Assembly (NCBI GenBank): GCA_015680685.1
Contig: MNCI01003446.1
Location: 55,691 to 119,690 of the forward strand
DNA from: Gnetum montanum
Taxonomy: Eukaryota; Plantae; Gnetophyta
Length of the DNA: 64,000 nt
Direction of reading: 5' to 3'
The position numbers and the translations under genes are program-made. The notes beneath the pieces are model-generated. The model had not been told where the DNA came from and searched no databases. It saw only the letters and a program-made list of their open reading frames with translations. Within the stretch, counting starts at the first letter, position 1. Each line of letters opens with the position of its first letter. Shown piece after piece: positions 10,436-36,471 of the stretch.

Positions 10436-11959
10436 TGAAACACCACAAAATTTTGGCCTAGCACTTTCAAACAAAATTCAAGCTAAGTCATGCTATTGCC
10501 CAACATGAGTATAGCATGACCAAACATGAGAGTCTCCAAAATGACATGAAATGACATTCAATGGAGCAAGCAAAGTCTCCCTGGGGCCCACAGGCGACTG
10601 CACCAGCTTTCGGCATCCAGAATCAAAATTTTTGGGCTCAAAGTGCTTAGTTTTGGCTAAGTATACTTTGGTTGCATTTTCTTACGCTACACAGCATAAG
10701 GCCTAGCGTCACCAACTTTTGGAGCCTCGGAACTGAGCCAAAACAGGCCAAAATTGAGCACAAGGACCCCCCATGACCTCCACTAATGGTTGCCCCAGGT
10801 TTCCAGCCCTTAGGATCCTGATTTTGGGCTCAAAAATACACTATTTTCACTGCTCACACCTAGCTCACGCCTAGGTCAGGCCTAGGTCAAGCCTAGGTCA
10901 CGCTAGAACGTGAGCCCAGTGTGACCAAAAAAATGGGTTTAAATAAGCATTCCCAGGCACAATGTCAGCATCAACTCAACTCCCAAGGGTAGGCAGCCGT
11001 TATACTTGAAGGACAAGCCTTGAAAATCAAGATTCGATGCAAAAATGGCCTAGCGTGAGCCTAGCATGAGCTTCCAAAAGTGGGCTAAAACATTTCAAAC
11101 ACATGCTGAAAACATGCCAGGACAAGATCAAGTCAAATCGACATCCTACAACAGCCGATCCAAGAGACTATGAAGTTCCAAGTGAGCCAGAGTCAAATTT
11201 TAATTGCAAATTCATTGTAAATTTTCATTCTAAGCTTTACCATAGGTGAGCTTGTTAAGCCCTTACGCTGCTTCCATGGGCATAAACTAGCTTGCATTGT
11301 AAGATGCAGTGCACCTGGTCTAGAACGTAGTTTTCCCATGTACACCTATCATGCAATCCATTATTCTCTCATCTCGCCATCATCAATCCTGTTCATTCCT
11401 ACTCCCAAGCCTAGATGAATGCATAAATACCCTGTGCAAAGACATAAACAGGGTTTGCAAAAATTTGGCAAAAGAAACTAGCAATCCTAATCTTGGACAC
11501 ACGTGATTCCCAGCACCTGCAAACACTACACATCGAAGCTTAACATCTGACTTGCAATCCAGATTCGCAACTACGTTTTGAACGGTGCACATTTTGTCAA
11601 TTAATACAATACATTTTCATTTTTTCCTTCTGTTGTGCTGTTCTTATTCATTGTTTGTATTATTTTGTTTTATCGCAAGTTTCTACAATACATTCTCTGC
11701 ACATTTACATGATGTATTTCATGTTTACGTTTCATTTTTATTACGTTCTTCATTTTACATTTCATAACAATAACCCCAACGTAGGCCATAGCATATGCTC
11801 AGGGAAGTCCTTGGTTGATTTGCGTGTAGACCATCCAAGGCACTCTACCTTCATCTTTCCAGCCTTCCCTCACGCGAAGGTAGGGTCATCTATGTTTCTC
11901 CGGAGATATTTCGACGTACGTTTTTTTCCAGCCTTACGTCGATGATTTCGAACAGTATA
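10436..11959 (+). repeat. 5' LTR of element B
   Basis: Direct repeat of 28164-29647; starts with TG, ends in TA (CA>TA), followed by the PBS. Confidence 0.92.
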
Positions 11960-11964
11960 GAAAT

Positions 11965-11982
11965 TGCTGCTAGAAGGAGGGC
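11965..11982 (+). promoter_or_regulatory. PBS of element B (tRNA-Asn type)
   Basis: TGCTGCTAGAAGGAGGGC; 2 mismatches to the complement of the plant tRNA-Asn(GUU) 3' end, TGGCGCTAGAAGGAGGGC. Confidence 0.8.
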
Positions 11983-12074
11983 CGCTTACCGTTTGATAAA
12001 ACCTTAGTTACCCCATAGTTCAAAATGTTGCACTAATTGAGCACTTTAACCAAAACCCCCATTAATGTTGGTCC

Positions 12075-12355
12075 TGTTCATGCTAGGCTTGCTCATGTTG
12101 CAAATTTACTCACGTTGAGACCAGTTACTCATGCTGAGCTTACTCATGCTGACACCAGTTACTCACACTGAGCTTGCTCATGCTGACACCAGATACTCAC
12201 ACTAAGCTTGCTCACGTTGACATCAGTTACTCATGTTGAGCTTACTCACGCTGACACCAGTTACTCACGTTGAGCTTGCTCATGAAAACACTAGTTACTC
12301 ACGCTAAGCTTGCTCACGCTGACACCAATTACTCATGCTAAGCTTGCTCACACTA
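12075..12355 (+). repeat. ~34-bp tandem repeat in the 5' UTR of B
   Basis: About 7-8 copies of GAGCTTGCTCATGCTGACACCAGTTACTCACACT, built from CTCACGCT-like halves. Confidence 0.9.
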
Positions 12356-12414
12356 TGACTAGTCCACATAAGTTAGGCTTTACATAAATTCAGCTAGTCA
12401 AATCGATTACACAC

Positions 12415-15400
12415 ATGGAAGCATCCCAAATCAACGCAACATTGCCCATTTCTGACCTCAATGCTGAAATCTCAAATCCTGTGACTGCAACCAAATCTAT
12501 AGTCACCGTTGGAGAGATGAACCTTCAAGGGCCAACCTGTCAGTCACTTACGTTACAAGGCAAAGATCCTGCCTATACAATTCTCACCTCATAACAATAC
12601 AACTTCATTTGTGTAAAGATCCAAGCCAACCTACCTACTGATTGCGCAGAAATAGAAGCAAAATGACATTTTGAGTTCGTCTATAAGGGGGACCATAATT
12701 TTATCCCCTCAGCATACAATGTGATTCCCTTATCTAAATCTCATCAAGAACTTATATCCCACCTCCTCATGGTAAGGAGTCAAACCTTGCAGCAATCTGC
12801 TGCGGAACCCCAAAACAAAGATGAAGAAGATAATTTCGCGGCTCAGTCCGAACACTGAGATTCGTACCATACTCTCAGTCCGCATACTTATACGAACCCA
12901 TTATTTCACCCTTTCACAGGAGAGACCATGTCACTTCATATAGTTAAAAGCACTCAAGCACATGTGCCCCAACAGGAAGCACCTACTCTCATTCCCACTG
13001 TCCCTATGACCGATACTCAATTCAATGTACCCATCCCCACTATTCCTTCGGCCACCACATTATCCCCTCTCCTACAAGTACAACCCCAACAACCCTCCTC
13101 TCTAACTAATGTAAGAGTGACTTTCCCACCCCAAGTAATTGGGATGCCCTCTGTGATACCCGCTTCCACATCTACACACTTCATCCCATGAGTGCAGGTT
13201 CATACCACACCCTTAGCTCCTCCAGTACAACATCAAGTACAAAGTCTCCCTTCACAACCCATAGTTGGACAATGGCCCGTCCCATTTTTCCAGTCACAAC
13301 AATCTGTTCCACAACCCCCAATTGGCCGATGGTCCATCCCTGTCACTCAACAACAATGACCTATACCTTATGGTATGCTGCCCTGAGTGGGACCCTCTGT
13401 AAATGTTTCACAAGTGCAACCTTAGACCACTCAACTTTCTTCCTTTCTATCCACTATACAGTAGTCTAACTTGTACGACACTCAAACTAGCCAACCTACT
13501 GCTCTACCAAGTGCCCAAGAATGGGCTGAATCCAAAAAGATGATGCAAGAGCTCACTGATGAGGTAAAACACCTCAAAACTGCTAACAACGAAGAGCTTA
13601 AAGTATTAGACTTTTACCAAGATGATCCTATTAGCTCTTTGGTGCCACCATTAACCCTGCCCAAAGGAGTTTCTTTTCCTCAACTAACCAAATACAATGG
13701 GGAAGGAGATCCCAACGCCCATCTGGTCACATTTAGACTAGAATGTTTATTGCTTCAGGCCTGGCCCCACACAATCTTGTGTGTGTTTGTCATTTCCCTC
13801 ACTGGATGAGCTTTAGACTAGTACTGAGCCTTGCCTCGTAACTCCATATCCTCTTTGGAGGATCTCTTACACCAGTTCATTACCAGGTTTAAATACAAGC
13901 TAAAACCTAAAGTGACCTTGGACAGTCTCATATAAGTAAAGCAAGCACCGCTTGAACTTGTACAAAAATTTATCCAAAAATGGAGTGCCACACTCAATGA
14001 ACTTCATGAGCCAACCCTAGAAACATACCTTCTTATGATTCTTAAGGGAGCCGTGAATGATTTTGTCAAATCAAAATTGTACTATCTAAATGCACGCACC
14101 CTAAGCCAAACTTTTGTACAGATCAAGAACATAGAAGAGGCAGCCCAAAGTAGCCATGACCCTGCTTACTCAACCTTCAAAAATAAACACACTAAAAAGG
14201 ATAAAGAAAAGGCCAAAGCAATAGTAGCAATAGTAGCAAAGACTCAACCTACTAACATGGGACAACAAGGTAGACCACCTACTACTCCCATTAACTATGA
14301 GAGAATCGCTCCTGCACATACACCTGAATCATCTACCATGCAAGCTACTAACACAGGTCATGCACATACGTTTGAGAGGAAAGACCCTGCTTAGTACACA
14401 CTACTCCCCATGAAGCCTTCCCAGTTGTTAAATCAACTTTTGAAGGTTGGGACCATTAAACACAAACAACTGTCTCCAACAGCAGCCCAGAGACATGACC
14501 GATTCTGTGAATTGGCCAAAAACCCAAGCTTGGCAACTCCAAATGAGCCTCCTATTCCAAGAGGCTTTAGACTAGATAGATTTTGCGAGTACCACCAATA
14601 GAATGGGCATGGTACTGCTTATTGTTTCACCCTAAAACAAGACATACAATGTATGATTGATAGGGGTGAAATAACATTTAACGATGCCAACCCTATTAAA
14701 CCGAAGAATCAATCTATGGACATATACAAAGATCCCCTTAATACTAAGGAAGCTCCTTACGTTATTAACATGATCCATGTCAGAAATTAGCAAGGTATGC
14801 CCAAAAAAACTTTCATGATTCGTGTTCCTCCTAAAACTTCAACATCATCCCCACAATCTTCGTATCCCACATATAATCTGCCTACACTGACAAAACCATT
14901 TGTTATTCATGTACCCCCTGCCAATGCAATCACAAATGTACAATCACCTACCCAGCTCACTCCCTTTGTGGTTCGAGTGCCACCTACGGTTGCAACCATG
15001 GAGGTACAACTGCAAAACCAACCAACTCCCTTTGTAATCAAGGTGCCCAAACACCTTGATCTTCAACCTCCTATTCCTCAACCACAAACCAAATCGACCC
15101 CATTCGTCATTATGGTGCCTAAACAGCTTGATGCACAACCACATCCAAATGTTCAACCACAACCTCGACCAACTCCATTCGTAATCCGAGTCCCAAAACA
15201 ACCTGATGTTCAAGCTCCAACAGTTCCCCCACGACCTTTGCAAGAACGCCTCACCAACAAACTCACTAGAGAATGGTTGAAAAAAGAACGTTGAAATCTT
15301 GAATTGGGGCCACCAAAACCCACTCCCTTAAATGTTGTACCTATGGCTCTGGCAACTGATGAGCCAAGCATGAGTCATGAAAGCAAAAAATCAGAGATGC

Positions 15401-16512
15401 CAGATATGTCGAACCCAACCATCACACTAGACCACATGAAGACCATTCCACAAGAGATACAATTGTTGGGTCCAATGGACCAAGTCTCAACTAGCAAGAC
15501 TATTCCAAATAGCCAAGACTTGGCCAATGCCCTAACTCAGGTCACACAAGCGCTTAAACAGAAAAATACATCTTTGAGCTTGTATGATCTAATGATGACT
15601 TCTCAAGTTCAATGTGAACCCTTAGTATGCATGTTAACATCGATCCCGGTCAGTGAACACTTGCTTGCAAATGAACCTTCCATTCATGTGGTAATGTCTC
15701 CATATCAAGGATCAAGAGCCACATCACTAAGCTTTAATGTGAATAATATAAAAATAGATGAAAAAATAGGAAAAGTCACCACTGCACCCATGTTCATAAC
15801 TATACAAGTAAATCAATTTAAGATACACAAGATGCATGTAGATGACAGAGTGGCCACGAACGTAGTACCATACCCCGTCATCGAACAGTTAGGGCTAACT
15901 GAACAAATCAAACCAACTTCCACGACATTCCTGAAATCGTTCAGTAGATCACGCGTAGTTGTCAAAGGAACACTAACTTTGGACTTCATAACAAGGGACC
16001 AGTTCCCCACGTTAGCTAAATTTGTGGTCGTAGATGAGATGCCTGGATTTAACTTGATATTGGGATGACCATGGCTAGCCCAATTAAAAGCGGTATCCTC
16101 ATCCATCCACCAAGAGATTCACTTACCCTATGAAGGTGGTGAAATCATTATACACGGTGATGCGGCTACATTCAACACCTCGACACACGTAGGCACAAAC
16201 CAAGGCTCAAAGTTCGAAATTGATGAGACTAAACAAGATGACATTACTCTTGAGCTTAAATAAAATGCCACACTCACTGAAAACCAAAGTGATAACCAAT
16301 CCCCAAACTGTGATCCCCTGGAAGATATAGAAACATTACAAAATGTGGAAACATTAGGACATGCTGACATAGGAGTTATTCCGCCAGACGTCTCATGGTT
16401 TGAATTGCCATTTAACATAATTAGCGAAGGAGATGCTGAATATACAATTACACCGACATGCCCAACACACCATGTCAATTTGCAAAAATTAAAGAAGCTA
16501 CTCAACCATTAA
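12415..16512 (+). pseudogene. gag: gag-protease of element B (disrupted)
   Basis: KYNGEGDPNAHL gag core, CEYHQ.NGHGT..C knuckle, PFVIRVP repeats, protease VDD(R)VATN...FNLILG.PWL; terminal TAA at 16510-16512. Confidence 0.9.
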
Positions 16513-16756
16513 ACTACAATCGTCTGAAATGACGTTAAACTACAATCTTCCGAAATGACGTTAAACTACAATTGTCTGAAATGACGTTAAACTACCACAT
16601 GTCCACAATAACATAAAACTAGCCACAATCAGGAATGGTCGATTTCAAAAAAAAACCTACTGAAACAATTTAAATTTCTCGTGTTTTCTTATGGCCTGAA
16701 ATGGCCTTAAACTAGAATGTTGTTGCACGCATGGCCTAAAATGGCCTTAAACTAGA
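16509..16756 (+). repeat. Hairpin+TAAACT motif cluster after the gag-PR stop (B)
   Basis: CGTC-tgaaat-GACG-TTAAACT x3 (degenerate) and GGCC-tgaaat/taaaat-GGCC-TTAAACT x2. Confidence 0.85.
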
Positions 16757-17159
16757 ACAAGTTTCGTTTTTGTTTCTTTAAAATTACATTCTTGTTTGCA
16801 TGCATATTTGCATCCTTGCTCTACAAATTATTATTCCCCTTACATTTCTTCCACACTGTTACCATTTTATTTACATTCACACTTATATTTATAAACAACT
16901 AAAACAACAAAAACAAATTACAAAATTGAATCACAAAATTAAAAAAAAAAATCATTCGTGTTTACACTTGTGTCTACCCAAAGTTTGGACAAAAATTTAG
17001 AAAAAAAACTTGAACAACATAAAACACCAAAAAAATGTGTAAATGTATAAATATATCAAATGTTAACATGGTATCATACATTTTTTTTCATACAATCTAC
17101 AAAGAAAAGACAACAAACTAACAAAGAAATGACAAGGTTGACAGGACCAACAAGTCAGA

Positions 17160-20100
17160 TCATGCACTAGTGTTAGGAGGAGGTTGGTCCCCAAAATCCT
17201 CCATGTCATCAGCCCCTATCCCACTAGGGCTAGCCTCATCAGCACCACACCCTTATCACGAAGAGAAAACAAAACAACAAAATGAGCAGACGCACAAAAA
17301 GAAAAAAAAAGAACAGGTAAAAGAGAGCAAAGACACTAGAGAGGAATGATGACTAAAAGTAATAAAATAATGCAATAAAATACTCATGGATGAAGAAGAC
17401 CTGAAATTAGCTTCTAAGCACCATAAAATCTCTTCTTCGGGCACACAAGCCCAATCTTTCTCGAGTCCGAGGTCGATGTTGGCCAAGGTCTTACCCTTGT
17501 CCATGGGAGACCAGGAGGGACGCTCAAGAGAAAACACACTTGTTGAAACCTCCCCAAAGGTAGTGGTAATGGATCTCTCAGGAGACCCCTCCACTTTTGT
17601 ATATTCAACGAACTTCTCATAAGAAGAGCATAAACCTAACCCCTCCACGAACATCTCCAACCGGCGACGTTCCACTGATTCCTCTTTTAACTATTTTTTA
17701 TATTGGTGCTTATGATCTTTCTAATCTTGGCCCCATTTATGTACTTTGGATGCAAAGGATTTCCAGCCATGGCACTTCCTATTCAATAGATCCATCTGGG
17801 CCCTTTGTTCGGCCAAATCTTGAATCGCCTACACCTTGTTATTCAAGCATGCCCAATAACGTACATAAATGATCTCGAATGAACGCCATGTACTATCATT
17901 TTCCAACCTAGCAGAGGAAAAATCATAACGGGCTTGCAAATCATTTCTCTCCTTTGTCATCTTCGCCAGATTTTCCTTCAATGATTGAATTTCAAGCCAT
18001 AGTTGTCCAATTAAGCGCCTGTAAGTCCAGAGAGATTTGGCATTTGGGACAACACAACCCGAAATCGAATCATAAATCTCTCTTAGGATCTGCTCAATAT
18101 CTCTTGGCAATTCTGGGAGACTATTAATATGAGTAGCCTCAGAAGGATTCCATTGAAGCTTTGCACCTACAAGTACAAACATTGCACACATAAGCCAACC
18201 AGAAATCTCCAACAGAAGCAAAAACACAGTGAACTTAGGCACTTAGTATAAAGTACACACCTAATTCAGGATGAGCCTATCTCAAACAAGCTACAACATC
18301 ATTGACAATGCCAATGACAAAGTCTACTTTATTAGGCACCTCAGGCCACAGCTTCAATGGATCAGTGGATCTTGGATTTATATGAGAAGGCATCTTAACT
18401 GGGGCCTCAAACTCCGACCCACATGCCTAAGAAGCATATGCTTCAGGTACCTTAGCATCTATATCTAATGTCAAGCAAAGCCATGATAGTTAAAATAATG
18501 CATGAAACTAGGAAGATACAAAATGCAGATCAAACTAACAAGACTTACCAAGCGGCCCTCTACTGGTCAGCTCAGGCGGATCACCAAGGTGTAGAGACCC
18601 ATCGAAGAAACCATCAAAAACATCTTTCTTCTCAATTGAGTGTTTAAGGGCATCTAAAGCCTCAACAAGTGTCATGTCCATGGTGCTCATTTCATCCTCT
18701 TCTCGTAAGATGGAAATGGCCTCAACTGCTTCTTCCCTCGTATCCTCCTCTTCGTTACACCCAATGGTGACTGTTTTAGGTTCATCCATTGGAGCTAATT
18801 TCTCCCTCTCTCTCTCGGGGGTATCCTCTGTTAACACCAGTAAACCTAAAGTTAGCATGATGTAATAGGCATACATATCTAAGTAAATAAGTAAATTCCA
18901 AAAAAGTAAAAAAAAAATTGAGCAAAAATAATAAAATACTTACCCACTCTTGGCAAGGTGAATCGAATCTTCTTAGCTCTCAGCGACCTCGCCTCTATGG
19001 TAGGATCCCTCAGATGCTCACCTCTTTTCACCTTAGCCTTGGCCTTTTCAACAGTCTCTTAGATTAAGCGTCTAGCCCTCCTAACACTAGTGTGCAGCTG
19101 AGGTTGATCTAACCCCAGGCTGTCACATGAATGGCGGGAATGATTAGCTGCGCCTCCTGTTGTGACAGAGACTAACCCCTTGATGCCTTCAGGTGGATCT
19201 TGGGATCTAGTGGTGTTAAATAGGTGACAAATCCAAGGGTGAGACAACTATGAACGGTCCCTTAACACATAATGGGTATCCCCATAGACCACTAAGAACT
19301 CAGCAAACCTACGAAAATAGCCCACAAAAAAGGCAAATGTGAAGTGTGACCTAGCATCAACATTGGAACATAGCTTGCTGATCTCTCCACGGAGACCCAA
19401 TACAAGGAAATGCGCCCATTCATAATGCATACCAGTCTCTAAGACTGAACACATAACATGCACAAACTCCACCCCGAGACTTCTTGCTTGGGAAAGAGAC
19501 TTAGGAAATGCTCGAGCTCTAAAGAGCAGGTACATAAAGTTTGCCTTCATCGAACGAGTATCATCTTGCATGGTGAAGCCTTTAGGACCTCGCGGTACAC
19601 CTAGCCAGTCTTCAAGTTCCTTACCACATGTCTCTCTTTAGTTCCCCTATCAACCGCCACCTTAACACCATTCACTGGCACATCAAAAAGATCGGAAAAG
19701 AATTCAGCGGTGATGTGGAAGGACACCTTTACTCCTCGAACCCGTGTGGTAAAATGGGAGACGTCATTGTTAAAAGAGTCAACTATAGCAACCATTTCAG
19801 TAGTGGGAACGTTGGGAGTCAAGGTGGTAAATAGGTCCAGTAGGCCTACGCTAGTGAGATGGCTGATGATTTGTTCAGGTGCCTTCTTATGCAACCACTG
19901 TTGCGACTCCTCTGTTTCTACAAACTTCATACAAAGAGTAGCCTCAGTGCGCCCAGATATGACGGTAACCTCATCAAGAGGAACGACCACTATAGAAAAG
20001 ACATAGGTGACATTGAGCCAAAAGAAAAAATCAAATCAAAAACATGCTAAAATGAAAATAAATCCTGGAACACGATCATTTACCACTAGTAAATGGAGTA

Positions 20101-20888
20101 GGTACACTTGCTGCAAGGTCAATCATTTGAGGAAAAATAGGCCAATCAGGAGACCAATCCTCATGTAGCCAATCACGAACTCGACAACATTCCAAGGCCC
20201 TAGAGAACTACCTAGGATAATTGATAATAGCATCCTTGGTCTAGCCTAACACTGCAGAACGAAGTGTGGGGCCCATCATGAACGCTTCCAAGGCTCTGCC
20301 TACTATGGTAAGTTCGTTATCATCCTCATGCAATCCATGCTAAGCAAAATGGAGCCTGCAAAAGAAAGAACACTCATACGCGAACAATGATCATAACGCT
20401 AAGCAAGTCAACATTAATACACATATAAAAGAGCATACTTGTCTACTCGATATACTGTTCTAGGTGGGTTTTGAAACAGTGTGTGTGCACAGCAAGCTAG
20501 AAACAGTGTGCTACTACTATTATAATGGCTGCAAGATGGAAATCCCCACACACAAGTTAAAGAGCATGTAGATTTAGGACCTTCAAGAATGCCTCCCTTG
20601 ACCACATATAGCCCCTCTTCTATGTCAGCAATGAAAGCTAGCACACCCCGCGTTGAGCTAGGTAATATGGTCTCAACAATGTCACAAGTCAGCTACTCAT
20701 TCAAATGAGACCATATGACAACGCTGAAATTCTGTAGAATAAATGACAAAAAGGCACCAACATTTGAATGAAACCATATCACGTGTGCCCTGATCAGCAT
20801 GTCATAACTGGTCGTTTTCTGTTCCAAAGGGCCGAATCAAGATAGCACACCAACCAGTTCAACCACAAGGAGAGAAGGCTTAGGCCCC
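17160..20888 (-). pseudogene. Antisense spliced accessory gene of B (FCP1/NIF-like pseudo-phosphatase, Transposase_32/PMD-like domain, acidic region, coiled coil)
   Basis: GT-AG bounded exons 20888-20439, 20355-20084 and 19989-18944, plus further exons to ~17160. Homologous to 37851-41531. Start exon not identified. Confidence 0.85.
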
Positions 20889-23181
20889 CTACACCAAAAC
20901 AAAATCCCAGGTAAGTAAGTTAAAATTTGTAAACACACAAATGAAAGTAACCATTAATGAAACATGACTATATATCCCTTCATCAATCCGAAATCATTGA
21001 AATACAGTGGCAACAGATTTCGAATACAAAATCGAGACTTATTTTGAAAAATGCATTGTTCCCTTAGGAGATACATAGATGGAGTGCATGCTGACGAAAA
21101 AGTCTGGTCACCATTGGCCCTTATGTGTAGGGTACTGCTTATAACATGATCATAACATATGCATAATGGAGCTGGCCATGTTCAAAAAAAAGAATATATA
21201 TCAATAAGATGTAAACCTATTACATCTTATTACTAGTCCAGCACTAGTAGGAGCGTTCATTTTACATCTTATTACTGGTCCAGTGCTAATAGGAATGTTA
21301 GTTAATTTGTGTACATGTGCTAGCCCACTATATATAAATGACTATATCTCAAAATGCTACTCCACATGGTAGGGCCTTAAATGTGCTAATTTGTTCATCA
21401 TATTACTGATAACCTAATCATGTATCAGCTATCCATCACACGGTAAGGAGAATATGGAATGCCATATTTAGCTAAAAGTAATCCAGGGTAACAGCACCTC
21501 ATGAATTGAGACAATACCATCATACCAACTTGAGGCATGAGATGCTGATCCAAATTGCAAGATTGAAGATCAACAACAATATCACTGCACGCGTCGCCCA
21601 AATTAGAGGTCTAAGTCACGCTAATTTTGGTTCAATAGCCCACACTGCCAAGTAAGAGGCCTAACTCACCCTGGACAATCCAAACCGGAAAACTCACGCT
21701 GCAATAGAAACGAAGGCAACAACTCATACTCACGTTGCAAATGGTAGCTGACTCATGCTACAAATGGCAGCTAACTCACGCTGAGCATGTAACAGTCCAT
21801 CCAAAATCATGGATGTCAACACAATCACTCACTATATTGTAAACAGTTCATAGGACCAAATGCCAAACCTCGGATACTAGTTATGGGAAATCTATTAGCA
21901 CAAGCAGTGATTTGGTGTTTGAATACAAGACTTTGTATTTTAACCTTTGAGTGTCAGTTTATAGGATAACCCATAAACACCGATAAAATTTTAGCACAAG
22001 CGTTGGTTATTTGTAGTGAACCAACAAGGTTGATTTTGGCTAAAGGCACTATTCATGTTACTTATGCTGCCTAGGGCACGTTACTCACACTGCCCAGGGC
22101 AAGCAACTCACACTAGGGCAATTTGCACTGCCAAGGAAATTCACATGCATACCAGAGCATCCCTCACGATGACACTAGAACCCCTAAACCAGCCTCCAAT
22201 AACTCATGTTAAAGCCCGATTACTCAAACTAGCTGATTCTCAAAAGGTAACCCCAAATGCAATTTAAAACACAAATGCCCTGGAACATAGTGAAGGAATA
22301 TAGAAAACGTGATCATTGCTAGATAATTAAAATTTAAATCGCCCTCATACACTAAAATACGGTGGTTCCCATAACTCAAATACTGCCACTCGTTGGTGTT
22401 ATGCTGCGAAAAATTGAAAAGAAAAGAGGAAAGCAATAAACCTACATAGGGTTCCAACCCACGAAGAAACCCTTGGTTATAGAAGGCATTGAAGCAACTC
22501 CTTGCTCTCTTCCACAAACACTAAGCTTGCCTACCTCTTCCCCTTCCCTTGTTCCAGCTTTCCCTTGCCCTTCATCTTGCTCTATTACTCACGTTGTTTC
22601 TACTCTGTACTCATGTTGTCCTGCCCTGTTACTCATGCTGTCGGTCCCTCTTGCTCACGTTGCAAGTCTTCAAGTCGCTCACGCTGCTTAGAAGTCACGC
22701 TAAGTACATGTTTATAGTTGCTCATGCTAATGGAAAATCCTCCAACTCACACTGCCTTCTATTCCCAAGCATTCACGCTGCTCGTCACCTTCATCAACTC
22801 ATGTTGCATTGGTTACTCATGCTTGCATCTCACTTGGCCTCCCCTTTTTTTTCTTTACCCCAATTGTTTACACGTGGCGCGTTTTACCTCATTTATATCT
22901 TACTTATTTTATTCTATCCTTGTACTTTGAGGTAGCCATTTCTTTTATTTCTTGCATACATTTATTCATTCTCCCAAAGCAACTTAGATGTTTTAAATCC
23001 AAGAAATTTATGTGCATAAAGCTCAAATTACGTTTTGGCTTGGTACGGCCTTAAACTGCCATACTATGGCCCAGTATGGCCTAAAACTTCCATTACATAC
23101 CACAATCTTGTTAGACTAATCATGTGGAACTTAAACCTTCCTCATCAAGAAAATGTTGTTTAAATTGGTAGGAACAAGCAT

Positions 23182-26100
23182 ATGGACAGCAAGAACCTCT
23201 TTTCAACATTGTCTATCAATGGACCACATGGGGCCATTCAACGAGAAGTTGACCTAGAATCCATTGATCTAGACTCATCATCAATTTATGAAAATTTTGT
23301 GGCATCCACTCAAGGAACATCAGATTGCTTTGAGGATATGACTAAACCTTTGGACTTAGAAGTCGACAACATCACTGAGGATCCCCTCGTTGAAGTCCCC
23401 ATCACCATGTCTAGTGGCGAGCTTAAAACATTAAAATTAAGTACTTTACTAAATCTGCAAATTTCCAATGACATTACACGAGTGTTGAAGAATAATATAA
23501 AAACTTTCACTTGGTCGTATACTGATATGCTAGGATTGGACCCTTGCATCATCCAACATAACATCATCCTCGATGAAAAACTTATACCGGTAAAGCAAAA
23601 GGCACAAAAGGTTAGGCCTGAGGTAGCATTGGCAGTTCGTAATGAAATCACAACACTATATCAAGTTGGTTTTATTTGGGCTGTTGATTACACCTATTGG
23701 GTATCTAACATTGTTGTAGTCCCTAAGAAGAACGGCAACATTCGCATATGTATTGACTTCCATGACCTCAACGTAGCCACTATAAAAGACAACTTCCTGC
23801 TACCCAGCATCGATCAACTTATTGACTCAACCGCCAGGCACGCATTATTGTCCTTTATGTATGGATTCTCGGGATACAACCAAATTAGGATCAAACCAGA
23901 ACATCAACTCAAGATAACCTTCATGACACCTCGGGGCATGTTCTGTTGTACAATGATGCCATTTGATCTCAAAAACGTGGGTGCCACGTATCAATGGGAA
24001 ATGACATATATATTTAGCGATTATATGCTCAATTCACTCAATGATTATGTAAATGACATCGCATTCAAGTCCAAAATAACCAAACAGCACGCGAAGCACC
24101 TAGACTTGGTACTCAAATGCTATCTCAAATACAACCTTAAGAATAACCCAAAGCAATAAGTCTTTAGGGTTAAGATGAAAAAAATGCTTGGCTTCATAGT
24201 CTCCGAAATAGGTATACGAGTAGACCCTAATAAGGTCAAAGCAATAACTAATATGCAACCACCTAGGAACCTCACTAAATTACATGGTCTGCAAGGTAGA
24301 CTGCAATTCATCATGCGCTTTATTATGAAGCTAACTGATAAGTTGAAACCCATGCAACATTTACTATGAAAGAATGTCCATTTTCAATGGACTCAACTGT
24401 GCCAAGAGGCCTTTGAAAACATAAAAGTAGAGTTGGCTCAACTACCAACGATTCATCCCTCGCAAAGTGATATACCTTTTTACATCTACCTTGCCACGTC
24501 TGACTCATCGATTGCGTCCATGCTTTGCCAAAAATAAGAAGATGGAGCTGAGATCCCCATTTACTATTTAAGCCATGCCTGAACTACATACAAACAATGC
24601 TACAACGATGTGGAGAGATCGTGTCTTGTCCTAGTATTTTCCTTAAAGAAGTGGTGATACTATCTCTTTCGTAATCAATTCTATATCATTTGCAAAGATA
24701 ACGTGCTTCGAGCTATCACAAACAACATCTATGAGTCAAGTAGGATAAATAGATGGAAGGCAATGATTGTAGAGTTTGACCTATGCTATGTTGGTTAATC
24801 CTCCACTAAGGGTCAAGCAATAGCTAATCAATTGACTGCATCACTGATACAAGATTAAGTGACGATCAACCTTGAATTTCCTAATGAAGATATTAGTAGC
24901 ATAGACGTAGTGTCCAATAATTATGATGCAATCCTGTACTTTGATGGAGCATCCACCTCCAGAGGAGGAAGTGTTGCAACCATCATAACATATCCCTCGA
25001 AAGAAATTCTCCCTTTTTCCTATCGACTAAACTTCCCTAGCACCAACAATGTGGTAGAGTATGAAGGTCTTCTTAGAGGTATTATAGTGGCATTAACTTC
25101 AGGGATCACACGTCTTGTAGTTCGCGGTGATTCACAGTTAGTAATCAATCAAGTCACTGAAATCTACGCATGCAAAGCTCTGCATTTGCAACCATACTAT
25201 GACCTGACAAAACACTTACTAAAACAACTAATCAATGTAGACATGCAACACATTCCTCGAAACAAAAATACTATTGCTGACACACTTGCCACACTAGCCT
25301 TGAACATGACACCTGACATGTTCCATGCATTGCCTAGTTCTATAACAAATTGTGCCAAACCTATGATCAACGCACTTGATGAAATACCCATAGTGTCTGT
25401 TAGCACTACACGAGTAATAGAGTGGTACGATGACATAAAAGAGTACCTTCTACGAGGCGAACCAACATACCATTTGACAAGCACTCAAAAATATGTGATG
25501 CAAAAATGCTCTAGACAATATGCATTAATAGGGGATACCTTGTGTCGCAAGTCCTATGAAGGCATCTTGTTGATGTGCGTCAGTAGCATTGATGACAAAA
25601 CGATAGTGGAGTAGGTTCACGAAGGACTGTATGGAGGGCATATAGCACCCAAAGCAATGGCAACAAAAATTAGATGTTTGGGCTATTACTAGCTACACAT
25701 GGAGTACAATTTCTTCTCCAGGGTCAGGAAATGTAACATTTTCCAAAGGCATGGTAACCCAATACATGTACCACCTAATGAGTTGCATACTACACAAATC
25801 ACATGGCCATTCAAAAAATGGGGATTAGACATCATTGGGTCAATAACACCACCATCTTCAACAAGACATAGTTTCATCATCACTGTGACCAAATACTTTA
25901 CCAAATGGGTAGAAGCCATTCCCCTTAGGAAAACCACGTCCAAACACGTTTGCAACTTCATATTAGAAAACATCGTAACCCGCTTTAGTATCCCAATGAC
26001 CATAGTCATCGATAATGGGCCACAATATAGTAGCACGGATACTAAAAGCTTCTATGAATGCTTAGGTATTAAACACTCATTTTCATTATCCTACTACCCA

Positions 26101-26661
26101 TAGAGCAATGGTCAAGTAGAGTCTATGAATAAAATGATCATCATGGTGCTCAAGAAAATGCTGAATCAAAGTAAGAGATGATAGCACGAGTAGTTAATCT
26201 ATGCACTATGGACATACCGAACAATGCATCGAACGTCCACAGGTAAGACACCATATAGCCTAGTATACAGATCTGAAGTTGTGTTACCTTTGGAGTTATA
26301 GGTGTCCTCGCTGCGGATAACGCTCTCTAGCCTCCTTGATGAAAGCCAAAACAATGAACTACACATCACTGACCTTGACTCGGTGAAGGAAGAAAGAGTA
26401 TGAATGCTTGACCAAATCAAATGGTACCAAAGATAGTAACGACAATGTCATCAACATAATCCACATAAGTAGCTGATCAAGGAAGGTGACCTAGTTCTCA
26501 AGGCAGTCCGCAAACACTCAGAAAAATTTTCAGCCAACTAGGAAGGACCTTACTTAGTCACTAAAGCATATGATAATGGGGCATTCAAGCTTGTCGACAT
26601 GGACAAAAATGAATTGGCCAATCCTTCAAACCACATGTACCTGAAACCATTCTATGTCTAA
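23182..26661 (+). pseudogene. pol: pol of element B: RT, RNase H, additional (archaeal-type) RNase H, integrase with GPY motif
   Basis: FTWSYTDMLGLDP, WVSNIVVVPKKNG.IRICIDF, FSGYNQI, YVND; aRH LYFDGAS..TNNVVEYEGL..GDSQLVINQV; integrase WPFKKWGLDIIG, DNGPQ, EGPY. Multiple stops. Confidence 0.95.
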
Positions 26662-26678
26662 TGATCTTAAGGTACGTC

Positions 26679-26990
26679 ATGGTCCTAGCATCACGACCTA
26701 AAACTGATACCACAGAATAGTCCTAGAGCTATGACTTAAAAACTAGTACCACAAAACGTCCTGGCATCATGATAGTAAATCGACACCACAAAGATCTATC
26801 CTACATGACACTAAACTGTTACACTCATTCACCAGAGTCCACTAAGACTATAAAATAGCTAGCCTCTTCATAGTCCACCATGACTATAAACTAGCATGGC
26901 ACCATCTGGTACGATGCTAAATTGGCAACATCCAATGGGTTATGACGTAAAACTAATCCACGAGAGTCTGCCAAGACTATAAACTAGCAA
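26679..26990 (+). repeat. Hairpin+TAAACT motif array in the 3' UTR of B
   Basis: About 9 degenerate units, e.g. TAGTC-caccat-GACTA-TAAACT and AGTC-tgccaa-GACT-ATAAACT. Confidence 0.8.
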
Positions 26991-28150
26991 CTTCTTCACT
27001 AGCCTACTAATCTGTTGCTGAAATTGAATGGCATGTCATCATCAACCTAATCAATGAATTCATCACATGGCTCTGACAACATTGCTGCTTCTCAATTTTG
27101 TTTGCCTACGATTGCACGTGGTATTTCCATCCCATCAATTTCATCCATGTTTAAAGTGTTAAGCTAACTCATTCACTTGTGGTTTTCTTGTCTTCTTGGA
27201 GTTATGTTTGTAGGATGACACCCAAAGGTGTTCGTACATGAATGCACTTCATCACGACAACAAGGTGACACATTGTTCCTAATGCATGTAACCAGGTTAA
27301 TCAAACCATTCACAAGTACATTTACAATTCCTCAAACATCCCTTATTCCCTAACATGTTCTCCCTACCCATTTTCCAGATACATCCCTGTCACCCCTAAA
27401 CTTGAACAACACTATTGCACACTGTAACTCTCCAAGTAGTTGTGCAACACAGCATAGCCCATGATACAATTACAAGCACACAAGCACAAGTACAAAAAAC
27501 ATGCTCTTGCCAAAAACAAAAAAAAACAAAAAAAATAGAAGGCTAAAATAATAATAAAAATAAAAATGAAAATCAAAGAGCAAAATCCATCATAAGACCA
27601 TTGGCACTTCCCATACAAGCCCCAGGTGGGAAGGTACTTGTCTTGGAAGAAAACACTCATGTCTCAAACAATCACGTTGCATCCCACTACGTGGCTTTGG
27701 CTATTGGACAACGGGTTCTCTTTGACACTCAATAAGAATCTTGTTTCTCCAAAGAACGTACCACCTCACCGCGTGGCTCTGGTTGTGACAACGAGTTCTC
27801 TTAAACATGATACAGGAGTCTCATTCCTCCAAAGGACGCACATCCCATGCCTTGGTCCCAAGTCTACTAGATATTGGCTATTGAAAAGGACCAACATGAT
27901 GTGATTCACACAAGAGCATTCCTCTTCCCATAGTTAAACAAAATCATCCCTTCATCAATCCCCGATCTCGCAGTAACAAACCTTTCTCCCTATACACCTC
28001 AAAAACCTCATTTCCCAATTCCATGTACTTCTGAACATGGTGCGATGAAATATGGCAAAGTGCCAAAGAACAATGCTTGATACCTAGTTTCTTGTGGTGT
28101 TTTGTACTTCTTTGTCAACACCTCTTGGGTAGAGTCCTCCAGACATCAAC

Positions 28151-28159
28151 AAAGAGGGG
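28151..28159 (+). promoter_or_regulatory. Polypurine tract of B
   Basis: AAAGAGGGG-CCAA immediately before the 3' LTR TG; identical in C. Confidence 0.85.
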
Positions 28160-28163
28160 CCAA

Positions 28164-29647
28164 TGAAACACCACAAAAATTCTAGCAACACTTCCAAACA
28201 CTTCAGAGCCTCTGAAGTGGTTTCAAACAGCCCACCATGGAGCAAGGAAGGTCCCCATGGGGCCCACAGATCATGACAGCAAGTCTCGGTGTCAAGAATC
28301 ATCAGTTTCAAGGTCAAAAAGTGCAATTTTGACTAACTACATTTTTCAAACGTTGCACAGCGTAAGGCTCAACGTCACCAACTTTTGGAGCCCCGAAACT
28401 AAGTCAAAATAGGTTAAAATTGAGTACAAGGACCCCCCATGACCTCCACTAATGGTTACCCCAAGTTCCCAACCCTCAGAATCCTAATTTTGAGCTTGAA
28501 AATACACTATTTTTACTACTCACGCCTAGCTCACACCAAGGTCAAGCCTAGGTCACGCTGGAATGTGAGCCCAGCGTGACCAAATGAAAATGGGTTTAAA
28601 AAAGTAGTCTCAGGTACAATGTTAGCATCAACTCAACTCCCAAGGGCAGGCAGCAGTTATACTTGAAGGAAAAGCCTCGAAAATCAAGATTCGGTGCAAA
28701 AATGAACCATTCTGCCTATCTCATGCCCAGTTCACACTGAGGTCACTCTAATAGCGTGAGCCTAGCGTGAGCTACCAAAAGTGGCCCAAAACATTTCAGA
28801 CATACACCGAAAACACGCCAAGACAAGATCAACTCAAATCAACATCTTGCAGTAGCCGATCCAAAATACTATGAAGTTCCAAGTGAGCTGGAGTCAAATT
28901 TTAATTGCAAATTCATTGTAAGCTTCACCATGTGTGAGCTTGTCAAGCCCTTACACTGCTTCCATGGGCGTAAAATAGCTTGTGTTGTAAGATGCAGTGC
29001 ACCTAGTCTAGAACGTAGTTTTCCCACGTACACTTGTCATGCGATCCGTTATTATCTCATCTCACCGTCATTGATCCTGTTCATTCCTACTCCCAAGCCT
29101 AGATGAATGCATAAATACCCTGTGCAAAGACATAAACAAGGTTGGAAAAAATTTGGCAAAATAAACCAGCAATCCTGAGCCCAGACGCACGTGATTCCCA
29201 GCACCTACAAACACTACACATCAGAGCTTAACGTCTGACTTGCAATCCAGATTCGCAACTACATTTTGACCGATGCACGTTTTGTTAATTAATACAATAC
29301 AATTTCATTTTTTCCTTCCGTTGTGCTGTTCTTGTTCGTTATCTGTATTATTCTATTTTATCATGGGTTTCTGCAATACATTCTCTACACGTTTACAAGA
29401 TGTATTTCACGTTTACATTTCATTTTTATTACACTCTTCATTTTACATTTCGTAATGATAACCCCAGCGTAGGCCATAGCGTATGCTCAGGGAAGTCCTT
29501 GGTTAATCTGCGTGTAGACCATCCAAGGCACTCTACCTTCATCTTTCTAGCTTACCCTCACACGAAGGTAGGGTCATCTATGTCTCTCCGAAGATCTTTT
29601 GACGTACATTTTCTTCCAGCCTTACGCTAATGATTTCAGACAGTACA
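28164..29647 (+). repeat. 3' LTR of element B
   Basis: TG...CA direct repeat of 10436-11959. Confidence 0.93.
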
Positions 29648-31194: not shown

Positions 31195-32691
31195 TGTACT
31201 GTCTGAAATCGTCGATGCCCAGATGGAATGAAAAAGACACTGAGAGATCCACAGACAGACATAGAAGACCCTACCTTCACTTGAGGGTGAACTGGAACTA
31301 ACGAAGGTAGAGTACCTTGGGTGGTCCGCACGCAGATCAGACAAGGATTTCCCCGAATGTATACCAATGTGCAATACGCTGGGTTATGGGTAAACAGTGT
31401 AATAAATGTAAACCAGAATATAAACGTGCAAGGATGTAAACAAGAGGTAAATAAGAACGAATGAAAACTATAGTAAATCTTAACCAAAAATGCAGCAATA
31501 TTATTGCATGATGAAAATTACAATGCACCGGTCTAAACGCAGTTATGGATCTAGCACAAGGCGGATGAAGAGCCCTAATGGATGCGGAGGGGTGATGGTA
31601 TGCTGGTTTAAAGTACAGTCACAACGTGGAGGCTGTATGCTCAGTGTGCAGGATCGAAGTCCAGCATACATGATGGGTGTTCTGGATGTTCTCAGCGTGG
31701 ATTGCCCAAATTTCTTTTTGCCCCGATTCTTTAATTTTCCGAACCCTTATCTAGTCAAAAATCTAGGGTTTTGTACAAGTTTTGGTGTTAAACTCGGATC
31801 TGAGATGGGATGATTGGGTGTGGGATGCTAAAATTTTGGATCGGGTGACATGTGGAGCGTCGACCGAGTGCAACAGAATGAAACTTTACAAGTGTGCGGT
31901 GTGCCAGCTTGTACACGCTGGGCGTGTAGGGCTAAAAATGACCCTTATGATGCTTAAAATTGATGTTTATAGAGCCAGTGGACTTGTAGATTCATTGACC
32001 ATGCCTTGGGGGCTAACTCCATGTCAAAATCTTGCCTAAAATGACTGATCAACCCTGTTCAAAGTGGTGCATGTTGGGCTGCACGCTGGGCATGCAGTCA
32101 AGTGTACAGGCATGAAAGTGCCACTTTTCAAAGTTAAAAATTGATCTTTGGAAGCCCAAGATGATTCCTGATAGTTTCCCTACCTCTGGGAGTTGATTGG
32201 CTATGAAAATCATGCTCTAAGTGTCTGTTTTGGTCTCTCTGAGTGGTACACGCTGGGCGTGCACACTGGGCATCCAGGCCAGTGTGCAGGCATGAAAACC
32301 CATCATTTGGAGCCCAAAATTTGAATTTCAAATGCCTAAAAGCTATTGGGGACCCTTGGGAAGGTCTTGGGGGGTCCAAATGCTTGATTATGACATGTTT
32401 TGATTCATTTTTGGAGCTAAAAAGTTGCTGCACGCTGAGCTGCACACTGAGCTATACGTTGGGCGTGAAGGCCTGTGTGCAAGAAGTATACTTAGTCAAA
32501 ACTAAGTGTTTTAAGTTTGAAACCTATAGTTCTTGTTGCTAGATGTTGATGTAGTCTCCAATGGATCTCAGGGAACTCTTGATTGTTCAATTATTGCTCC
32601 GTTTGATGCTGTTTTTGAGGCTTTCAAGCTTGGTCATGACTTAACTCAATTTCTGTCTACAAGTGTTAGCCAAAATTTTTGTGGTGTTTCA
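31195..32691 (-). repeat. 3' LTR of element C
   Basis: Direct repeat of 46977-48474, TG...CA, preceded on the minus strand by the PPT at 32696-32704. Confidence 0.95.
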
Positions 32692-33957
32692 TTGGCCCCT
32701 CTTTGTTGACGCTTGGAGGAATCGACCTGAGAGGCATCGACAAAGAAGTACAAAACACCACAAGCAACTTAGTGGCATTGTCCTTTGACATCTGGCCAGA
32801 TGTCCTCGCATCGTGTTCAAAAGTACTTGGGATTGGGAAATGAAGTTTTGAGATGATGTCTAGGGGATTGGGAATTAACCAAGGGATTGTGCTAGTGTGG
32901 GAGAGGAGTGTTCATCTTTGTGCAAACAATTCATGTTGTTCCTTGTCGATGGCCAATGTTTGGTAGACTTGGAACCAAGGTATGAGGTGTGCGTCCTTTA
33001 GAGGAACAAGACTCTTGTATCAGTTTTAAGAGAACTTGTTGTCACAACCAAAGCCACATGATGAGATGATGTGTTCTTTGGAGAAATAAGACCCTTGTAG
33101 AGTGTCTAAGGGAACCCATTATCTAACAGCCAAAGCCACGCAGTCTAAAATGAAACATGATGGTGTGAGACACGAACGGTTCTTTCCAAGACCACTGTCT
33201 TCCCGCCTGGGGCTTGAATGGGAAGTGCCAAGGGCTTGCGGTTCATTTTTCTCGTTGCTCTTTTTTCTTTTCTATTCCTTTTCATTTTTTTGTTCTCTTT
33301 TTTTCATTTTTTTGGAAAGAGTGTTCTTTCAATTTTACACTCATGCTCATGTGTTGTGTTGTGTGTGGCAATTGCTTGAGAGTGTCAAACCGTGAAACTG
33401 TATGCTCAAAGTTTTGGGTGCACTGGGTGTATCTAGGAGCTATGACTGGGTAGGAAGGGGAACAAGATTGTTGGGGAAATGGAGAATGTATTGGGAACTG
33501 GGAATGTACTTTTGAACAGATTGATTAACCTGGTTGCGTGCGTCAGAAACAATGTGGTACCTTGTCGCCGTGATGAAGTGTATCCATGTACGAGCACCAC
33601 TGGGTGTCATCCTGCAAACACAACTCCAAGAAGACAAGAAAACCACAAGTAATTGAGTTAGTGAACACTTTAGACATGAATGTGACTGATGAAACAAAGG
33701 CACCAGATGAGATTTCAAGCACTAAATATGAATGGTAGCAATGTCTTTAGGATCAATTGATGATGAGTGAGGCAGCGGCTCTGATGAGGTTTGAATGCAG
33801 CTACTGATCGGGAGGCTAGAAATGAAGCTGCCAGTTTATAGTCATAGCAGACTGTCATGGGTTAGTTTTATGTCATAACCTGTTGGACGTTGCCAGTTTA
33901 GTGTCGTAACAGATGGTGCCTTGCTAATTTATAGTCTTGGTGGACTATGGAGAGGCA

Positions 33958-36471
33958 AATAGTCATACTCCATGTGTGGCCAATAGTACCCTAAATGCCT
34001 TATTTTGGTTGCCATTGCTTTGGGTGCTATGTGCCCTCTACAAAGTCCTTCATGTACTTGCTCCACAATGGTTTGGCCATCAATGCTATTAACGCACCTT
34101 AACAGGATACCTTCGTAGGATCTACAACACAACGTGTCACCTACTAATGCATACTGTCGAAAACGCTTTCGTACTACATCCTTTTGTGCATTTGTTAGAT
34201 GTCGCGGTGTTTCACCGTGTAAAAGGTACTCTTTTATGTCATCATACCATTCTACTGTGTGTGTTGTACTAACTAATGTAATCAGTAATTCATCGGGAGT
34301 ATCAATTATGGATTTAGCACAACTGTTTATAGAACTAGGCAACGTGTGGAACATGTTTGGCACTAATTTTAGGGCTAACGTAGCTAGTGCATCTACAATG
34401 GTGTTATCATTTCTGAAAATATGTTGTACATCTATGTTGTCGAATCACTTCAGAAAATGCTTAGTCAAATCACAGTATGATTGTAAGTGTTGTGCTTTGC
34501 ATGTGTAAACGTCTGTGACTTGATTTAGAACTAGCTATGAGTCACCTCTGACTACGAGTCGTGTGATGTCAGAAGCTAGTGCTACTATGAGACCTCTAAG
34601 GAGGCCTTCATACTCTGCTACATTGTTGGTATAGTGAAAATTGAAGCGATAAGCAAAGGTTCGGATCTCCCTGGAGGGATAGGTGATGACGACGATGGCA
34701 CTTCCACCTCAGAAGGTGGATGCTCCATCAAAATTCAAGGTGACATCGTAATTATCAGGCACTATGTCTATTGCACTCACATTTTCATCTGGGAACTCTG
34801 GCTCTATTGTCGCTTGATCATGCATTGGTGATGTAGTCATTTGAGTTGCTATAGCTTGACCCTTAACTGATGACTATGCTATGTAGTGTAGGTCAAACTC
34901 AGCTATCATGGCTTTCCAGTGAGCCATCTTACTTGATTCATAGAGGTTGCCTGTGATGGCTCTAAGCACATTATCCTTGCAGATTATATTAACTTGGTTG
35001 CGGAAGAGATAATGTCGCCATTTCTTCAAGGAAAAGGTAAGGGCTAAACACAACCTCTCCACCTCATTGTACTTCTTGTCATGGGCTACTAATGCATGAC
35101 TTAAATAATATATAGGGACTTCAGTTCCATCATCTCATTTCTAGAAAATCATGGACGTGATTGATGAGTCAGATGTGGCCAGGTAGATATAGAATGGTTT
35201 GTTGTTCTGAGGTGGATAGACTGTCAGTAGTTGAACAAGTGTCGTTTTAATGTTGTCAAATGCTTCCTGGCATTGTGAAGTCCATTCAAAATGGATGTTC
35301 TTGCATAGCAAGTGGTTCATAGGTTTCAACTTGTCCGTCAGTTTTTCTATGAAACGCCTGATGAACTATAATCTACCTTGTAGACCTCGGAGTTTGGTAA
35401 GGTTGCTTGGTGGTTTCAATTTGGTGATAGCCTTAACCTTGTCTGGATTTACTTGTATTCCTATTTCTGATACTACGAAGCTTAGCATCTTGCCCGTTTT
35501 TACCCCAAAGACACATTTCTTTGGGTTGAGCCTAAGTTCATATTTTAGACAACGTTTTAAAACCAAATCTAAGTCTTGTATATGTTGCTCTGGTGTTTTT
35601 GATTTAAGTGCGATGTTATCCACATAATCATTGAGTGAATGAAGTATGTAATCGCTAAAAATGAATGTCATTGCTCTCTGATATGTGGCACCGACGTTCT
35701 TCAAGCTGAATGACATCATTGTATAGCAAAAGGTTCCCCATGGTGTCATAAAGGTCATCCTGAGCTGATGTTCCAAGTTAATCCTTATCTGGTTATATCC
35801 CGAAAAGCCATCCATAAAAGACAACAAAGCATGCCCCGCAGTTGAGTCAACAAGTTGATCAATGCTTGGTAGCGCGAAGTCATCCTTTATGATTGTGATG
35901 TTGAGATCCTGGAAGTCTATGCATAAGTGAATTCTTCCGTTCTTCTTGGGGACTATAACCAATTTAGACATCCAATCAACATAGTCAACAGCCTGAATGA
36001 AACCAGCTTGATAAAGCTTAGTAATCTCATTGCGAACTGCCAGTGCTACCTTAGGTTTAACCTTGCATGCTTTCTGTTTCACTAGTCTTAACTTGGGATC
36101 GAGTATAATGTTGTGTTGGACAATGCGAGGATCTAGTCCAGGCATGTCATTGTAAGACCAAGCAAATGCTTTCATGTTTTCTCAAAGCACGTATCCATGT
36201 CCTTGGCAAGTTGAGGTTGTAATAGTGAGCTCAATTTTAATACTTTAACTTCACCTTCAAGCATAGTTAAAGGATCTTCAGTGATGCTATCAGCTTCTAT
36301 GTCCAGAGATTTTGTCATACCTTCATAGCTGTCTAATGTTTGTTGCATCAAGGCTACTAATGTATCGTCTGTTGATGGACCTAAGTCGATAGAATTTATG
36401 TTGATTTCTTTTGTGATCTTTTCGTATGATCCATCGATGGTCAATGGTGTGAATAGATGCTTGCAATCCAT
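33958..36471 (-). pseudogene. pol: pol of element C (RT, RH, aRH, integrase Zn-finger only)
   Basis: ORFs 35366-36175 (FMDGFSGYNQI, YVDN), 35141-35329, 34874-35062 and 33929-34363 (VHEGLCRGH..GYYWPHM), then a direct jump to the 3' UTR. Confidence 0.93.

Follow-up and report, generated by a model that had tools for sequence, protein, structure and literature searches.

The analysed DNA (the window) is a 64,000-nucleotide (nt) stretch of the Gnetum montanum contig MNCI01003446.1 (positions 55,691 to 119,690), and it holds two long terminal repeat (LTR) retrotransposons of one Ty3/gypsy Tat family in opposite orientations, both decayed. Element B spans 10436..29646 (+), with LTRs at about 10436-11959 and 28164-29646 that are 82% alike and a 5-bp target duplication with one mismatch. 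Element C, of the same family, spans 31195..48474 (-), with LTRs 91% alike, a perfect 5-bp target duplication, and an integrase that is largely deleted; the two elements are about 72% alike. The family has the order gag-protease (gag-PR), stop codon, a spacer of 5.7-6.7 kb, reverse transcriptase (RT), RNase H (RH), archaeal-type RNase H (aRH), and integrase (INT). The gag-PR region of B lies at 12819..16512 (+), its 5′ limit being the start of B/C homology, and corresponds to 46036-42214 in C, where the gag and protease Pfam matches were located. The RT-RH-aRH-INT region of B (23182..26661, +) extends from a putative start codon, an ATG conserved in B and C (C 36471), to the integrase stop at 26659-26661. 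At the open reading frame (ORF) boundaries of this layout, both elements carry clusters of a small hairpin followed by TAAACT, which by their sequence and placement match the hexaloop coremin (xrRNA_C), an exoribonuclease-resistant RNA (xrRNA) described from RNA viruses.

Each element contains three clusters. Cluster 1 of B (16510..16756, +) has units at 16521, 16547, and 16573, which form a 26-nt tandem repeat, and at 16693 and 16733, and the gag-PR stop TAA (16510-16512) falls within a TAAACT upstream of these units. Cluster 1 of C (41955..42221, -) has units at 42202, 42175, 42082, 42052, 42015, and 41977, and the gag-PR stop (42216-42214) likewise lies within TAAACT. Cluster 2 precedes RT. 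In B (23037..23090, +), it is the most decayed cluster and consists of two decayed units 145 and 114 nt 5′ of the RT ATG; in C (36610..36692, -), it consists of three units (36692, 36662, and 36632) located 221-161 nt 5′ of the RT ATG, with loops that fit YGNNAD in all three. Cluster 3 of B (26681..26990, +) begins 19 nt past the integrase stop and comprises about 9 units with 6-nt and 10-11-nt loops, while cluster 3 of C (33830..33946, -) is shortened because a deletion took most of the integrase together with the 5′ part of the cluster. At the deletion, the zinc-finger region joins directly onto the middle of cluster 3 (33946-33960). The units are kept between B and C where the flanking non-coding DNA fails to align. 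The original prediction, made from the letters of the window alone, had placed six such clusters at these sites, and all six were recovered on the sequence; the stop codon inside TAAACT that it described for C recurs in B. The loop conservation and the units with 10-11-nt loops are additional to it.

A strict scan (perfect 4-5 bp stem, 6-nt loop, and TAAAC[TC]) gave 12 distinct sites in the 64 kb, 11 of them inside the clusters and 1 in the LTR of C. A pattern of two units whose stem and loop letters were left free gave 5 matches, compared with 0 in each of 100 dinucleotide shuffles. A looser scan of B and C, tolerant of deamination and with thresholds chosen after the units had been inspected, returned 24 units (0-4 in 20 shuffles); 23 lay on the sense strand within the six clusters and 1 was antisense, which nearly bears out the expectation that the hairpin always stands on the element sense strand.

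The compensatory stem changes reported earlier were also evident. In the 13 strict units, the middle pair is Watson-Crick throughout (TA 7, CG 6) and the outer pair in 11. In a hand-picked set of 22 units, the share of paired cells is 93.1%, compared with 74.9% in shuffles (0/500 as high) and 8-40% for slid helices, and changes on both sides occur at three of the four stem pairs; these pairing figures are descriptive and carry no probability, because the units are related by duplication and one row is misaligned. The closing pair is paired in 22/22, so that the first hairpin shows a stem of 3-5 bp with a pyrimidine-purine closing pair and covarying inner pairs, and the outer pairs include A-T, G-C, C-G, and T-A. 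One unit (C 42175) carries an ATGTC/GACAT stem followed by TAAAACT. Within the family, this covariation rests on two elements, B and C. The loop, which lay outside the search pattern, is equally constrained in the strict units: position 1 is a pyrimidine, position 5 is A, and position 6 is A or U in 13/13, and position 2 is G in 8 and A in 5. Thus, YGNNAD is fitted exactly by 8/13, and the remaining 5 differ solely by G-to-A at position 2. We infer that these A2 loops reflect methylation (CpG/CHG) decay of old copies; the observed/expected CpG ratio is about 0.5. The spacer TAAACT, which served as the search anchor, stands at the published distance from the first hairpin, and A20 is present in 11/13.

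The available sections of two papers (PMC6546385, PMC10520033) define coremin as GUCCGAAGACGUUAAACUAC plus a second hairpin, its hexaloop form having the loop YGNNAD and the spacer UUAAACUAC. According to these sections, the stem has 3-4 bp with a C-G closing pair and a free second pair; pairing rather than sequence is needed at the second and third pairs, and the fourth is dispensable. Six-nucleotide loops function when they fit YGNNAD, CGAAAU included, the spacer residues A16, A17, C18, U19, and A20 are essential, and the second hairpin is also called essential. In viral RNAs in vitro, Xrn1 stalls one nucleotide before the hairpin, and scanning ribosomes are stopped in reticulocyte and wheat-germ extracts (PMC10520033). 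Comparison of the window units with this description revealed that unit B 16521 carries the published stem and spacer letter for letter, with the loop UGAAAU, and that unit C 41977 has the loop CGAAAU, reported as resistant in the published assays. In placement, 23/24 units are on the coding strand, and the arrays start 8 and 11 nt past the gag-PR stops and 19 nt past the B integrase stop. Judged by sequence, the units have the sequence and placement features of xrRNA_C. Rfam gave no match across 10000-49000 at E up to 1. Class 3 xrRNA (xrRNA_LT) was rejected as an assignment: its coaxial P1/P2 stem-loop with apical pseudoknot is not found in these 21-nt hairpin-spacer motifs, nor is there an Rfam match.

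We further searched for the unit in viral sequences. The exact cluster-1 pattern had 0 matches in IMG/VR, and a two-unit pattern that specified the Y, G, and A of the loop but allowed any stem retrieved 49 viral loci, mostly RNA viruses, with RNA-virus Pfam domains in 36 of the 45 ORFs scanned (four loci were left unscanned). The longest ORF shares the strand of the motif in all 48 loci having an ORF of at least 200 codons. The middle pair is Watson-Crick in 76/76 distinct viral units (TA 41, AT 29, CG 4, GC 2; shuffled mean 33.4), and the outer pair in just 38/76, as expected if the fourth pair is dispensable. Of 54 viral clusters, 44 have the stop of a long ORF at -25 to 150 nt upstream (median 12 nt; two loci excluded), and the commonest unit spacing, 26-27 nt, equals the period of B cluster 1. 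In 596 Gb of prokaryote genomes, the same pattern gave only 5 matches, 2 of them with fully paired stems. A covariance model was built from 73 viral units, with 3 units of two loci lacking RNA-virus evidence excluded. Applied to the window, it gave 23 matches at E up to 5, of which the 18 best are cluster units that lie without exception on the sense strand, one more cluster unit scores E 1.4, and 4 weak matches lie elsewhere. That the fetched sequences are RNA viruses, with paired and sense-stranded units past stop codons, is not circular. Since covariation of the unit is also seen in RNA viruses, which lack any DNA stage, it should act at the RNA level; together with the sense-strand bias, this sustains the earlier proposal of an RNA element tied to ORF boundaries.

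Metagenome contigs were scanned for two units with G, C, G, C and TAAACT alone fixed, and 119 loci of about 530 estimated were analysed. The middle position is paired throughout in 64, in none for 47, and mixed in 8; many of the 47 belong to a non-hairpin 'GTCCCTAAACT' repeat class. Among 271 distinct units, 189 are paired (shuffled mean 116.8, maximum 139). No B/C family member occurs among the 119 loci, which gave 1 translated match, a distant integrase. Profiling of the ORFs (73 + 97) identified 3 loci with an RNA-dependent RNA polymerase (RdRP), 1 Ty3, 1 Ty1, and a few cellular-gene matches; the majority of the hairpin-type loci received no assignment. L005, L018, and L022 carry RNA-virus polymerase and coat genes with units just past stop codons, and L046 resembles a Lenarviricota RdRP; the identification search for L037 gave no match. 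L071 is the integrase end of a Ty3 chromovirus, with units that lie within its 3′ untranslated region (UTR), between the stop and the purine tract, and L042 is a Ty1/copia RT region. The viral covariance model matches both of these and 0/8 non-hairpin control loci (35 loci searched). In L042, three units (87-187) lie 5′ of the RT domain within the Ty1/copia pol region, echoing cluster 2. Hexaloop coremin units in tandem are present in many environmental RNA-virus contigs (L046, L120-L168), which are tombus-, picorna-, noda-, and narna-like. A further group consists of non-coding contigs with up to 11 paired coremin-type units (L001, L009, L014, L015, L017, L036, L054, L064, L072, L078, L089, and related loci); several of these are CpG-depleted, and G stands at position 20 in about half of their units.

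Reads from six RNA runs under the same species label map to the family, with clusters 1 and 3 among the parts covered, at low depth and from diverged relatives. The family is thus transcribed, and the strand of the reads is not fixable from the libraries. Joints that go back along the sequence at clusters 1 and 3 are extra tandem units in the expressed relatives, not splicing. A joint between 16715 and 23065 (3 reads, 24 letters on the short side) joins two units that resemble each other and was discounted as probably an artefact of the repeats, a spacer-less relative being possible.

These observations suggest, at a probability of roughly 0.68, that nuclease stalling is the selected function of the coremin-type units on the sense RNA. 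A host 5′-to-3′ exoribonuclease (XRN4 or a relative) and scanning ribosomes would both be stalled at the three ORF boundaries. Once the full-length RNA had been decapped or cleaved, its decay would halt at cluster 1, 2, or 3 and would yield three nested 3′-coterminal RNAs. The RNA starting at cluster 1 would be complementary to the mRNA of an antisense gene that lies in the spacer. The RNA starting at cluster 2 would begin 110-220 nt before the RT AUG, making it a candidate pol message or a protected pol segment, and the cluster-3 RNA would be a non-coding 3′-UTR RNA. The folds may also prevent 40S subunits or ribosomes that have left the gag-PR stop from moving on by scanning into the 6-kb spacer or up to the RT AUG; tandem copies could give redundancy, and a following unit could act as the second hairpin. 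Uncapped subgenomic RNAs have been proposed for the intergenic xrRNAs of tombus- and solemoviruses in the available parts of two papers (PMC10520033; PMC12397905). In Arabidopsis, XRN4 and RDR6 compete for retrotransposon RNA fragments (PMC8892269, available in part), and because of this competition the stalled products could, speculatively, bear on silencing. The broader proposition is doubtful and is offered tentatively: that xrRNAs function in the gene expression of LTR retrotransposons in both the Ty3 and the Ty1 lineages, the three coremin arrays of the Tat family making nested subgenomic RNAs, including an uncapped pol message, through XRN stalling.

Several observations weigh against nuclease stalling. 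Between cluster 2 and the RT ATG there are 4 (B) or 8 (C) upstream ATGs, and an uncapped pol RNA would therefore require cap-independent initiation, which is unsupported here. The required loop G is absent from 5/13 strict loops, C21 is retained in just 3/13 units (viral units show a similar spread at position 21), and G20 and the 10-11-nt loops are variants beyond those assayed in published work. A second hairpin of -4 kcal/mol or better directly follows the spacer in 5/13 strict units (0.38 vs 0.12 in shuffles), and 5/13 have none whatever; in 50 viral units sampled from 87, the corresponding values are 0.54 and 0.40. Folding of whole clusters gave z-scores of -0.2 to -2.7 with mixed folds and was not decisive. 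The viral model misses B cluster 2, and its ranking of the window is partly circular, since the pattern used to retrieve the viral units had come from the window. Among the rows listed from the RNA reads, whose libraries are, so far as recorded, not of the 5′-end kind, no start pile-up was found at the predicted stall sites; starts pile up instead at C 33803-33804 and at B 26807, inside a unit, in reads of unrecorded strand. At 33803-33804 (-), about 50 nt past the last C cluster-3 unit start, 95 molecules of run X11 start at two adjacent positions (depth 99).

A less probable explanation, on balance an unlikely one, is that selection kept the same coremin fold chiefly for blocking ribosomes, in a scheme like that of Ogre, with nuclease stalling incidental. 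Unspliced RNA would then give Gag-PR only, and a minority spliced RNA skipping clusters 1 and 2 would give RT-RH-INT. The arrest of scanning in the two cell-free extracts fits this scheme, as does a candidate acceptor (a U-rich tract with TAG|G) located 3′ of cluster 2, with 10-11 nt between it and the RT ATG, where B/C homology resumes. The donor side argues otherwise, since the 500 nt that lead up to the gag-PR stop contain no GT donor conserved in B and C above the threshold applied, and neither a gag-to-RT nor a leader-to-RT joint is among the joints listed from the six low-depth runs. Moreover, cluster 3 follows the last ORF, a place where a barrier to scanning would serve no evident purpose.

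The original prediction favoured an RNA hairpin recognised by a protein for packaging, translation or long-range splicing. Control of translation is a possible role, but a hairpin that serves packaging, export, or splicing by binding one of the element's own proteins (Gag, Pol, or the antisense product) now appears improbable. Signals of this kind usually take the form of small covarying hairpins repeated along the genomic strand, and a separately made Pol would presumably need a route into particles. However, units with the same loop and spacer constraints recur in tombus-, picorna-, noda-, and narna-like viruses and in Ty3 and Ty1 elements, which share no such protein. The units fit coremin instead, and in the available sections of the coremin papers (PMC6546385, PMC10520033) the motif acts in vitro with purified Xrn1 and stalls ribosomes without any element-encoded protein.

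We regard it as very improbable that the units are neutral tandem repeats, or a once-captured viral fragment without a role, with covariation arising from duplication and C-to-T decay. The 26-nt repeat of B cluster 1 would suit this explanation, the available text of PMC6317226 describes tandem arrays as frequent in Tat non-coding regions, and just two full-length copies were compared. Against it, the units recur at three separate sites and persist between B and C amid unalignable flanks, the four outer pair types go beyond deamination alone, and the placement agrees with the viral rule.

Least probable of all is a DNA-level inverted-repeat site for the product of the antisense gene: some plant transposons encode anti-silencing proteins, and the spliced antisense gene is flanked by clusters 1 and 2, but both free stem positions covary, 23/24 units are on one strand, the motif is common in RNA viruses, and the searches made with the antisense protein identified no DNA-binding domain. 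Among other roles, -1 frameshifting was dropped as the units lie outside ORFs, though coremin can stimulate frameshifting according to the available part of PMC10321173. A coronavirus-like template-switch signal, a branch point, a poly(A) signal, and a ribozyme were set aside without a dedicated test.

The antisense gene is about 3.7 kb long, spliced, and conserved in B and C between gag-PR and RT. In B, the multi-exon gene (17175..20900, -) is broken by stops and has a GT-AG intron at 20438-20356; in C (37834..41520, +), the GT-AG intron is at 38302-38405. Intron-skipping reads from relatives number 3 for each, matching the B intron approximately and the C intron closely. The C gene has a weak NIF Pfam match, below the cut-off, and the first exon seen in B is homologous to this weakly NIF/HAD-like exon of C. 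This first exon lacks what we take to be the first catalytic aspartate of the family. Homology searches found no homologues of the protein; a bacterial PKD-repeat protein, the sole representative match, was judged spurious. The claim that the clusters bracket this gene holds for clusters 1 and 2. Judging by cluster 3 and by where the viral units lie, the anchor seems to be the boundary of the sense-strand ORF rather than the antisense gene.

The position of aRH between RH and INT and the domain order place B and C in the Tat clade with the Ogre/Retand order, as given in the available text of PMC6317226. The nearest named RT is from Cryptomeria japonica (61-62% identity), and B, C, and this RT group at 88/89 support in a 24-row tree, which is below the bar for a firm branch and points to a host that is probably a gymnosperm. 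The 5′ leaders contain tandem repeats, with 7 copies of 34 nt in B (12109-12351) and 2 copies of 40 nt in C (46715-46804), and a word resembling CTCACGCT is found again in the LTRs and around 21728-22700. Elsewhere in the window, we observed a third RT-related element remnant at 755-1283 (-), an intact-looking host gene of glycosyltransferase family 17 at 52154-53308 (-), and short dispersed repeats clustered in both orientations at 58166-61863, possibly like miniature inverted-repeat transposable elements or short interspersed nuclear elements.

The coremin motif is known, and its retrotransposon setting appears new. In the titles and abstract openings searched, which included few subscription journals, no xrRNA was found in a retrotransposon, LTR, transposon, gypsy element, or eukaryotic genome. 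By title and abstract, the coremin-Xrn1 literature found concerns RNA viruses throughout, and the xrRNA papers searched by term, where their text was available, do not mention retrotransposons; nothing further was found in the literature on element architecture. A 2021 review (PMC8374639), in its available part, describes xrRNAs as characterised in viruses only and their presence in eukaryotic genomes as an open question. If nuclease stalling holds, a trick so far described only in viruses would extend to a eukaryotic genome, and retrotransposons and RNA viruses would have an RNA-decay countermeasure in common. Under the broader and doubtful proposition, these would be the first xrRNAs encoded in large numbers in such a genome, and Pol would have a new route of expression, neither frameshift nor splicing. 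Nuclease stalling would also provide a possible mechanism of Pol control where gag-PR and pol sit 6 kb apart, and stable retroelement RNA fragments would become a predictable class of plant RNA bearing on silencing. The 21-nt candidates fit published, assayable rules and are carried by a repetitive plant element as well as by retrotransposons of two unrelated lineages. Their natural variants (10-11-nt loops, G20, and covarying stems) constrain a fold that the 2023 papers term unsolved.

Three known systems, each taken from the available text of the papers cited, come close to B and C or to their units. As in Ogre/Retand elements (Neumann et al. 2019, PMC6317226), B and C have aRH between RH and INT, GAG-PROT split from RT-RH-INT by a non-coding region, an extra ORF, and a 5-bp target duplication. 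The Ogre spacer averages 274 bp, whereas that of B and C is 5.7-6.7 kb and houses a spliced antisense gene; and unlike Ogre, B and C show no conserved splice donor near the gag-PR stop at the threshold applied to the last 500 nt. The paper gives the Ogre/Retand domain order for angiosperms, whereas the nearest named RT to B and C is from a conifer. Class 3 xrRNA_LT of Solemoviridae and Tombusviridae (PMC12397905) is a plant-associated XRN blocker that is often intergenic and has been proposed to make or protect coding subgenomic RNAs, a role that cluster 2 may have; it differs from the window units in its larger and distinct stem-loop/pseudoknot fold. Relative to the hexaloop coremin (Dilweg et al. 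2019, PMC6546385; 2023, PMC10520033), the units here sit in a chromosomal LTR retrotransposon and not in an RNA virus, each element bears three arrays of up to about 9 units, the 10-11-nt loops exceed the longest assayed in the papers (8) and G occurs at position 20, and the second hairpin is poorly supported in the decayed B and C copies. The two nevertheless have in common a 4-bp hairpin with a C-G closing pair, a G-C third pair, and free second and fourth pairs, the loop YGNNAD, the spacer N-TAAACT-A, tandem copies, and a position on the sense strand at or just past stop codons and in intergenic regions.
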